Shown here piece by piece: positions 11,974-13,134 of a DNA stretch of 34,267 nt. The stretch comes from an uncultured Actinomycetes bacterium (GTDB taxonomy: Bacteria; Actinomycetota; Thermoleophilia; Miltoncostaeales; Miltoncostaeaceae). A program made the position numbers and the translations under genes. The notes beneath the pieces are model-generated. The model did not search any database. It was given only the letters and a program-made list of their open reading frames with translations, and was not told the origin of the DNA. Numbering within the stretch: the stretch's first letter is position 1; each line of letters opens with the position of its first letter. The stretch spans positions 1-34,267 of the forward strand of contig CAIPNN010000006.1 of the NCBI GenBank assembly GCA_903866425.1, read 5' to 3'.

Positions 11974-13023
11974 CTAGTACCGGCCCCGCCTCCGCCTGGT
12001 GCTCTGCGCCGATTTGCGCATCACGTCAAATTCCTCGAGGGAACGCCCTGACCCGACGGCCACGCAGGTGAGCGGGCTGTCTGCCAGGTGAATCGGCATC
12101 TCGGTCTCGTCACGCAGGCGCTCATCCAGGCCGTTCAGCAGCGATCCGCCGCCGGCCAGCACGATGCCGCGATCCATGATGTCTGACGCGAGCTCGGGAG
12201 GCGTGCGGTCGAGGGTGACCTTCACGGCTTCGACGATCTGGCTGACCGGCTCCTCCAGTGCCTCGCGCACCTGCTCGCTGGAGAGCACCACGGTCTTCGG
12301 CAGACCGCTGATCATGTCGCGCCCGCGGATCTCGGCCTCCATCTCATCGCGCAGTTTGAACGCGGAGCCGATCTCGAGCTTCACCTCCTCGGCGGTCTGC
12401 GTGCCGATCATCAACTTCTCTTCGCGCTTGACGTAGTTGACGATGGCCTCGTCGAGCTCGTCGCCGCCCACGCGAATTGACTGCGCCACCACGATGCCGC
12501 CGAGCGAGATGACGGCCACCTCGGTGGTGCCGCCACCGATGTCGACGATCATGTTGCCGGTGGGCTCACCCACGGGCAGGCCGGCGCCAATGGCGGCCGC
12601 CATGGGCTCCTCGATCAGATAGGCCTGGCGCGCGCCTGCCGAAAGCGTGGCCTCCTCCACCGCGCGCTTCTCCACGCCCGTCACGCCTGAGGGCACACAC
12701 ACCACCACGCGGGGGTGGGCCCACCTGTTCTGGTGCACTTTCTGGATGAAGTGGCGCAGCATCTGCTCGGTCACGTCGAAGTCGGCGATGACGCCGTCCT
12801 TCAGCGGGCGGATGGCGGTGATGTTGCCCGGGGTACGCCCCAGCATGCGCTTGGCCTCGATGCCCACGGCGTGCACATCGCCCGTGCGCTGGTCAATTGC
12901 CACCACAGAGGGCTCAGACAGCACGATGCCGCGACCCTTCACGTACACGAGGGTGTTGGCAGTGCCGAGGTCCACGGCCATGTCGCGGCCGCCGAACCCA
13001 GTCAGGTAACCGAAGAACCCGAT
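11974..13023 (-). CDS. mreB: actin-like rod-shape protein MreB; start proposed at ATC 13023 (the ORF track starts at ATG 12981)
   Basis: Contains [29 protein letters not shown]...[28 protein letters not shown]...[16 protein letters not shown]. The frame is open 14 codons upstream of ATG 12981 and encodes [20 protein letters not shown] (13034-13030) sits 6 nt before ATC 13023-13021. Confidence 0.93.
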
Positions 13024-13134
13024 GGCGGGCCTCCATGCTGATCGAGGTCAAGAAATCGCCCGGGGGCGTCCCCAAAGGGTATCCCAACCCTCAAATACCG
13101 CGATGTGCAGGCAACAAACCCTGCACGACACGTT

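Follow-up and report, generated by a model that had tools for sequence, protein, structure and literature searches.

Near-cognate initiation codons are a known phenomenon in bacteria. Escherichia coli has two genes genome-wide with such starts, and in infC and pcnB it is an AUU codon, placed behind a Shine-Dalgarno (SD) sequence, that is read by the initiator tRNA at the start of a conserved housekeeping gene. Among 2265 conserved genes of Listeria, fixed non-canonical starts occur in 6 (0.26 %); for rnhC an ATC start has been confirmed by experiment, and start-codon changes specific to single clades tune expression. Initiation factor IF3 selectively inhibits initiation at non-canonical codons, and it also disfavours leaderless mRNAs and reinitiation in the absence of an SD. 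Here we describe a further case, found in a stretch of 34,267 nucleotides (hereafter the window) from an uncultured freshwater Actinomycetes bacterium of the Miltoncostaeaceae, class Thermoleophilia (contig CAIPNN010000006.1 of assembly GCA_903866425.1), in which the gene mreB very probably begins with an ATC codon driven by a perfect GGAGG (Table 1).

The product of this gene scores 543.5 bits against the family profile NF010539 (cut-off 293) and 508.1 bits against TIGR00904 (cut-off 365.75), so that its whole-protein hidden Markov model scores lie well above the curated cut-offs. It is followed on the same strand by the genes expected in the neighbourhood of an MreB, namely those of MreC, MreD (TIGR03426), PBP2 or mrdA (TIGR03423, 535.6 bits) and RodA (TIGR02210, 353.9 bits), and a protein search places it within the Thermoleophilia, closest to metagenome-assembled genomes (MAGs) of the Miltoncostaeaceae type. 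All coordinates of the mreB site refer to the minus strand and were read directly from the window sequence. A preliminary description of this DNA had noted that the conserved N-terminus can be reached only from the ATC, and the direct reading agrees with its account of the site. The ATG at 12981 encodes the Met of the MAVDLG motif in direct continuation of the upstream frame, and the sequence in front of it, ttcggcggccgcgac, contains no SD; between the in-frame TGA and this codon there is no ATG, GTG or TTG; the GGAGG is separated by the six-nucleotide spacer cccgcc from the ATC, and an out-of-frame ATG at 13036 overlaps it. After the TGA the mreB frame reads PRSAWRPA and then the Ile of the ATC, and it is therefore open for 22 codons ahead of ATG 12981, the 14 codons given previously having been counted from the ATC.

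A gene that truly starts at a near-cognate codon is expected to possess conserved and demonstrably coding sequence upstream of all its canonical in-frame starts, an interval from the upstream stop to the conserved N-terminus that is free of canonical starts, a start position homologous to the canonical starts of its orthologues, and an SD at functional spacing that is conserved along with the codon. These properties were examined in 160 orthologous mreB loci from species-representative genomes and metagenomes and in 10 close relatives (single loci are designated by L numbers). The 159 evaluable loci were sampled regardless of their start codon; the metagenome scan gave relatives at <=89 % identity only, and the closest relatives were fetched individually.

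The alignment of MreB N-termini and of the underlying DNA, which the preliminary description had suggested, places the ATC of the window on the start codon of the orthologues. The aligned codon is ATG in 142 loci, GTG in 7, TTG in 4 and ATC in 6, which means that a canonical start stands at this position in 153 of the 159; the cultured species Conexibacter stalactiti (L010) and Solirubrobacter phytolaccae (L040) both have ATG there. Upstream of the aligned codon the sequences are unrelated between loci and frequently interrupted by in-frame stops. Because of this alignment with ATG, GTG and TTG, and of the unrelated, stop-bearing sequence in front of it, the ATC is seen to occupy the start-codon position of its orthologues. 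Downstream of it, the N-terminal segment is conserved class-wide, and the motif RDMAVDLG is invariant in 170 of 170 mreB sequences. Every annotated relative whose gene call is long enough contains the sequence IGF[FLWM]..., preceded by a variable residue.

The ATC-bearing set comprises 17 sequences (the window, L001, L081-83, L161-170, L064 and L138), which form one group when the MreB core is clustered by distance. Across them the ATC itself is invariant: it is never replaced by ATG despite an MreB divergence of up to about 12 %, when a single transversion would suffice. Judging from these sequences, the ATC arrangement is ancestral to a clade that includes the freshwater MAGs of the Miltoncostaeaceae type. 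In the window, where the in-frame stop is at -9 codons, and in L001, L064 and L166, the interval from this stop to the ATC holds neither ATG, GTG nor TTG; in L064 the stop lies four codons upstream of the ATC, and not even a CTG occurs before Met15.

The substitution pattern within the ATC clade changes exactly at the ATC. In codons 2-14 the variability at codon positions 1, 2 and 3 is 0.09, 0.05 and 0.27, of the kind seen in the gene body (0.02, 0.02 and 0.29 in codons 15-35), while in the 30 nt upstream of the ATC it is 0.48, 0.42 and 0.44, flat except for the SD columns. Furthermore, pairwise codon differences over codons 2-14 amount to 393 synonymous against 248 non-synonymous when counted in the mreB frame, and to 71:539 and 76:533 in the other two frames. 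The segment upstream of every canonical in-frame start is thus demonstrably coding.

The SD is kept together with the codon. A GGAGG or AGGAG lies 5-7 nt upstream of the ATC in 15 of the 17 ATC-clade sequences, whereas an SD of five matching letters is found in 0 of the 153 relatives with a canonical mreB start. At least 11 different sequences make up the spacer between SD and ATC (for example cccgcg, cccgtg, ctcgcg, cccccg, aatcca, cacgcg, caaccg, cgaccg and aaaccg), with the length held at 5-7 nt, and positions -11 to -7 are the sole conserved columns upstream of the ATC in the clade. On positional homology, on an SD conserved behind a varying spacer and on a coding pattern that sets in at the ATC, this codon is very probably the genuine initiation codon of mreB.

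The canonical-start relatives present a different layout. In 66 of the 153 loci a TAnnnT hexamer (TAGACT, TACACT, TATCCT and others) ends 5-16 nt before the start, with a peak at 9-12 nt, against about 10 loci expected from shuffling. This hexamer resembles the -10 box of actinobacterial promoters, and its closeness to the start suggests that the mreB leaders of these relatives are very short or absent; near-leaderless mreB mRNAs are suggested in this way for the Gaiellales and the Thermoleophilaceae. As a separate observation, many loci of Solirubrobacterales/Conexibacter (e.g. L010, L020, L085, L095, L101 and L102) carry pyrimidine tracts resembling an anti-SD (ccccctcc, cctccc), which sit 5-15 nt before the mreB ATG, where an SD would be expected.

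In the window, metatranscriptome contigs of three runs all end at 13028-13052, just downstream of a terminator-like hairpin that separates maf from the mreB leader, and DNA contigs run on across this point. Contig ends are weak evidence, but these may reflect an mRNA whose 5' end lies some 30 nt ahead of the ATC. A TAnnnT hexamer, TACCCT at 13081-13076, is conserved in close relatives, but it is out of step with the ends of the RNA contigs. A scan for the sigma-70 consensus upstream of mreB found no promoter, and an Rfam search returned three tRNAs only and no known leader or riboswitch upstream of the gene. Termination-reinitiation from an open reading frame (ORF) located upstream was rejected, there being no ORF that ends near the ATC.

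From these elements a mechanism may be proposed. In the ATC clade the 30S subunit would be placed on a leadered mRNA by the perfect GGAGG, 6 nt before the AUC, and the initiator tRNA-fMet would pair with this near-cognate codon with a mismatch at the third position; methionine would be inserted, as it is upon AUC initiation in E. coli. The clade would have exchanged a start-codon-dependent initiation, at a near-leaderless ATG, for an SD-dependent mode that tolerates a weak codon. A strong SD would make the weak codon usable, while a leaderless mRNA could not dispense with AUG or GUG. Such a compensation is proposed because the perfect SD co-occurs with the ATC and no SD accompanies the ATG of the sister lineages. 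The consequence is probably a lower or IF3-sensitive synthesis of MreB, or else merely a tolerated drift.

Compatible with a genuine ATC start, though in our estimate rather unlikely, is the explanation that the codon is kept as a regulatory device, like the AUU of infC, holding MreB synthesis low and sensitive to IF3 and growth state. The selective action of IF3 on non-canonical starts, the tuning of expression by clade-specific start codons in Listeria and the lack of any reversion to ATG across the clade would all agree with it; set against them, an ATA for valS, a CTG for maf and probably an ATT for mreC in the same 34 kb favour lineage-wide tolerance over a device specific to mreB. The ATC would in that alternative be tolerated since the lineage discriminates weakly against near-cognate starts. 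The comparison with the described systems can be drawn along the same lines. Like infC and pcnB of E. coli, mreB is a conserved housekeeping gene with a predicted near-cognate start of the isoleucine family, which the initiator tRNA would read behind an SD; in place of AUU, however, it has AUC, no autoregulatory logic is evident, and infC itself does not lie in the window. In addition, the conservation of the ATC is confined to one clade of the Thermoleophilia, with sister lineages having ATG at the same position. Listeria monocytogenes rnhC is similar in that an ATC start is fixed in a conserved gene and that start codons differ between clades. It differs in that the change in mreB coincides with the gain of a strong SD and the loss of the near-leaderless layout, and the fixed non-canonical starts of Listeria stand at a far smaller fraction than the 3 to 5 of about 19 evaluated genes in this window.

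Other codons could initiate within the same frame, and the first to be considered is the near-cognate CTG of Leu7, which would yield a product beginning MTGFGGRD. CTG is a recognised rare start, the NCBI pipeline selected it once (MCX6409248.1), and generic MreB profiles begin near it (position 3 of NF010539 aligns with residue 17 of the stop-to-stop ORF). This reading is nevertheless very unlikely: the CTG lies 24 nt from the conserved SD, it is CTC in L161, L162 and L064 and ATG in L169, the class-specific mreB orthologues begin 6 codons before it, and codons 2-6, which precede it, vary synonymously while keeping Gly2, Phe3 and Tyr6.

Still less probable, indeed highly improbable, is translation from ATG 12981, with a 335-aa product and the 42 nt upstream acting as a non-coding regulatory leader. 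This ATG is the first canonical start in the frame, and the 335/336-aa product is the commonest public call for mreB, but those 42 nt show the third-position periodicity and the in-frame synonymous excess reported above, and the same residues are unquestionably coding in the 153 relatives with ATG, GTG or TTG at the ATC position. Moreover, no SD precedes ATG 12981, and RDMAVDLG is an internal motif in every relative.

The public records illustrate how unsettled the annotation of this start is. On near-identical DNA four different starts have been called: ATC (MFZ4755777.1), CTG at +6 (MCX6409248.1), ATG at +14 and ATG at -36 (385-aa products). The annotated N-termini fall into classes beginning MAVDLG... 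(335/336 aa), M[SN]YLSGFGGRD... (347 aa), MGFLGYL... or MIGFFGYL... (350 aa) and MTGFGGRD... (344 aa), and there are also longer calls, of 355-385 aa, that extend through PAIGFFGYL; 9 contigs in four sources carry the exact 335-aa product. The record MFZ4755777.1, from the Miltoncostaeaceae bacterium MAG GCA_049318525.1, is an orthologue in which NCBI already annotates the ATC as the mreB start, but it is an automated call at odds with other records of near-identical DNA, and literature searches found no published comparative or experimental justification for it. A GTG one codon upstream of the ATC occurs in L163 only, where GCC became GTG, and in this single lineage it may truly serve as a secondary start; as a side observation, GTG at -1 also figures among the annotated mreB starts (L163-L170 and proteins), whose products range from 335 to 385 aa. 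Two further candidates were discarded. The in-frame near-cognate AGG at 13032-13030 falls within the SD and is not conserved as a codon. The ATG at codon 4 in L161 and L162 and that at codon 7 in L169 were rejected as relocated starts and taken as ordinary hydrophobic replacements, because F to M and L to M also occur in loci with ATG at codon 1 (e.g. L037, L025 and L050).

Finally, a one-nucleotide indel (real or of assembly), a programmed +1 frameshift or transcriptional slippage that would put ATG 13036 into the mreB frame has practically no probability left: this ATG exists, and the loss of one base (or the gain of two, but not the one-base gain also suggested previously) would bring it into frame, yet it is TTG, TCG, GCG, CGG or GGG in the relatives and ATG in none, its overlap with the GGAGG would leave it without an SD of its own, about a dozen diverged relatives retain the identical frame relationship of the ATC, no homopolymer or slippery run other than 'ccc' is near, and the assembled sequences are gap-free. 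The last point comes from assembled Logan contigs, which were checked over 12850-13200, including the interval 13020-13040 where the preliminary description had proposed to look for an indel. Over 12850-13181 the DNA contigs of three studies run without gaps, and over 13000-13050 without differences; RNA contigs from three metatranscriptomes cover 12850 to 13028-13052, again with no gaps and no differences at the site. No assembled contig, whether DNA or RNA, places ATG 13036 in frame, and with the frame conserved in all relatives the site bears no sign of a frameshift, a pseudogene or an assembly indel. The RNA contigs include the ATC in three runs and the SD in two; the ATC site is transcribed.

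Several points weigh against initiation at the ATC. It is deduced from sequence comparison. In E. coli, AUC ranks as a very weak start, reaching 1-2 % of AUG, whereas MreB is normally made in abundance. The motif GGAGG-N6-ATC is by itself unremarkable, since about one is expected per window by chance (1 in the window against a mean of 1.16 in shuffles), and it takes its significance from its in-frame placement at a conserved N-terminus and from its conservation in relatives. The ATC-clade sequences are kin, so that the 15 of 17 set against 0 of 153 are not independent events, and two basal members lack a strong SD, L064 having no convincing one and L138 an AGGA only. Assembled contigs, moreover, may hide minority variants.

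The ATC of mreB is accompanied by other near-cognate starts in the window, which were found by a crude frame-aware scan of the window and by alignments to family profiles. The clearest concerns valS. After the TGA at 18661-18659 its frame reads GGA GTC GGC ATA GCC ACC, where ATA is the sole near-cognate codon, and the alignment to ValS profiles sets in at residue 16-17, before GTG 18595 and GTG 18580; the conserved N-terminal motif thus precedes all canonical starts. The closest relative, L171, has an identical GAGGAGtcggcATAG at the clpX-valS junction; ahead of the ATG called in it, it encodes WPARLEP, differing there from the window by five synonymous changes in a row, while the more distant L172 has a canonical coupled GTGA at the position that is homologous base for base. 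A start of valS at the ATA is a robust prediction from these comparisons.

The case of maf is equally robust as a prediction, the conserved Maf N-terminus beginning at a CTG that overlaps the ndk stop codon. In L170 and L166 the maf frame has an upstream in-frame stop and then no canonical codon. Class-wide (about 100 loci) the codon at the maf/ndk overlap is TTG, GTG or CTG (NTGA), with CTG common in outgroups too, and gene callers give Maf lengths of 151-194 aa; NCBI calls the CTG in one MAG and an ATC in another. On the other side of maf, between it and mreB, there are two perfect palindromes, which are REP-like (repetitive extragenic palindromic), at 13154-13185 and 13232-13262 (CGGTGCCAGACACC...GGTGTCTGGCACCG). 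The maf frame of the window continues through them, which adds about 45 residues after the Maf domain (ORF 13135-14025). Logan contigs reach a depth of 100-170 at the palindromes, compared with 17 in the flanking DNA, and many of them break off at the palindromes; high depth and contig breaks together point to an element that is multi-copy in the genome or in the community.

For mreC, the start is probably at ATT 11886, behind an AGGAGG, and not at GTG 11844 or ATG 11841, neither of which has an SD. Within the close subclade (L161, L163-L166 and L170 were examined) both the ATT layout and the peptide IPESPR... are kept, and L161, with an in-frame indel of one codon, lacks any canonical start at the MMIRR position. 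Synonymous changes are in modest excess (35 % in frame, 11-13 % in the other frames), and more distant members of the clade use ATG. A coupled near-cognate start (CTG or ATC) is possible for rng, where the junction at 6417-6422 on the minus strand reads CTGATC, as at ndk-maf: the CTG overlaps the TGA of the preceding ORF (286 aa, 6419-7279), the ATC shares its A, and the RNase G profile sets in five to six residues ahead of GTG 6404, the first canonical start.

In the window, then, near-cognate starts are robust for three genes (mreB, valS and maf), probable for mreC and possible for rng, among about 19 genes whose N-termini can be judged; most other genes have ordinary starts (L21, PBP2, MreD, NDK, ClpX, Tig, malate synthase, FolC, ProB and BirA). 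Three robust cases among about 19 genes greatly exceed both the Listeria fraction and the two genes of E. coli. From one window of neighbouring genes, we rate a genome-wide excess of near-cognate starts as a tentative proposal, slightly short of an even chance. Just as tentative is the broader reading as a lineage trait, according to which organisms of the Miltoncostaeales type would exceed model bacteria by one to two orders of magnitude in their use of near-cognate starts for essential genes. The codons involved would be AUC, AUU, AUA and CUG, always accompanied by a strong SD or a stop-start overlap, and the use of CTG at stop-start overlaps would extend to much of the Thermoleophilia.

The segment that the ATC opens has 14 residues before Met15 and 17 before DLG. 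Its residues 1-12 carry no charge, with neither Lys nor Arg, and are rich in Gly and aromatic residues and uniformly hydrophobic. Residue 2 of MreB is Gly, Ser or Ala in all 170 sequences, and a small residue at this position favours the removal of methionine by methionine aminopeptidase. The initiator Met is for this reason probably removed, and the mature N-terminus would probably be GFF..., SFF... or AFF...

The preliminary description had held that 8-12 residues always precede the DLG strand and that the peptide might behave as a membrane-binding helix. The first statement was too strong: MreBs exist both with and without an N-terminal extension of 7-9 residues, which in E. coli MreB is a membrane-binding amphipathic helix (Salje et al., 2011). 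The second finds weak support and, for a classical amphipathic helix, none. As in the E. coli helix, an additional Phe-rich segment of similar length precedes the first beta-strand (DLGTANT), and it is conserved and very hydrophobic, but the E. coli helix is cationic with a high moment and the segment here is uncharged with a low one, so that the high moment with a cationic or polar face typical of an amphipathic helix is not found. The mean hydrophobicity (H) is 0.67 and the helical hydrophobic moment (muH) 0.18, a value reached by 766 of 5000 shuffles (15 %). The same calculation gave a muH of 0.51-0.58 and a mean H near 0 for the E. coli peptide. N-termini from E. coli, B. subtilis, T. maritima and Streptomyces served for the comparison; E. 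coli MreB has 15 residues before DLG against the 17 found here. An AlphaFold2 model built on a 14-sequence alignment, which is too shallow (all sequences >86 % identical), had a mean pLDDT of 37.7 and is unusable for the N-terminus. A hydrophobic membrane anchor formed by this N-terminus would be plausible.

Table 1. Features of the mreB start site and of the neighbouring near-cognate starts in the window.
Feature	Position	Strand	Remarks
mreB coding sequence as proposed	11974..13023	-	349 codons, from ATC 13023 to the stop TAG 11976-11974; matches NF010539
ATC, proposed initiation codon	13021..13023	-	aligned with canonical starts in 153/159 loci; invariant in the 17 ATC-clade sequences
Shine-Dalgarno GGAGG	13030..13034	-	6 nt before the ATC; SD kept in 15/17 ATC-clade sequences
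Spacer cccgcc, SD to ATC	13024..13029	-	sequence varies, length 5-7 nt in relatives
mreB codons 2-14, hydrophobic N-terminal segment	12982..13020	-	in-frame codon-position variability and synonymous excess
ATG of Met15, internal residue taken as start by gene callers	12979..12981	-	no SD; RDMAVDLG invariant
CTG of Leu7, NCBI start in MCX6409248.1, considered unlikely	13003..13005	-	SD 24 nt away; replaced by CTC or ATG in some relatives
In-frame TGA closing the mreB frame	13048..13050	-	9 codons ahead of the ATC
Out-of-frame ATG overlapping the SD, incidental	13034..13036	-	TTG, TCG, GCG, CGG or GGG in relatives
Terminator-like hairpin with T-rich tail, between maf and the mreB leader	13059..13076	-	putative role
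valS, proposed ATA start	18647..18649	-	overlaps the clpX stop TAG as ATAG; SD GAGGAG 18660-18655, 5 nt upstream
maf, proposed CTG start	13828..13830	-	overlaps the ndk stop TGA as CTGA
mreC, probable ATT start	11884..11886	-	AGGAGG 11902-11897, 8 nt upstream

What is new in this locus, beyond the automated ATC annotation already on record, is the comparative demonstration of a clade-wide ATC start of mreB, of the SD gained with it and of the clustering of near-cognate starts in neighbouring genes; literature searches on start-codon usage in Thermoleophilia or Miltoncostaea found nothing. In practical terms, the commonest mreB call (335 aa) drops a 14-residue N-terminus that is conserved across the class, and users of the databases would express or model MreB in truncated form, as they probably would ValS, Maf and MreC. 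The uncharged, Phe- and Gly-rich N-terminus is unlike the cationic amphipathic helix known from Gram-negative MreB, and in this actinobacterial lineage it may be an alternative means of fixing MreB to the membrane. From the perspective of translation, mreB offers a clean natural case in which a weak start codon was fixed together with the gain of a perfect SD, and in which the trade-off between start-codon and SD strength is testable. If near-cognate starts are truly a trait of the lineage, start-codon discrimination would be weakened through an altered IF3, initiator tRNA or 30S P-site, and gene callers limited to ATG, GTG and TTG would systematically truncate these proteomes; if the trait holds genome-wide, the lineage would be a natural system for the study of relaxed start-codon discrimination by IF3 and the initiator tRNA.

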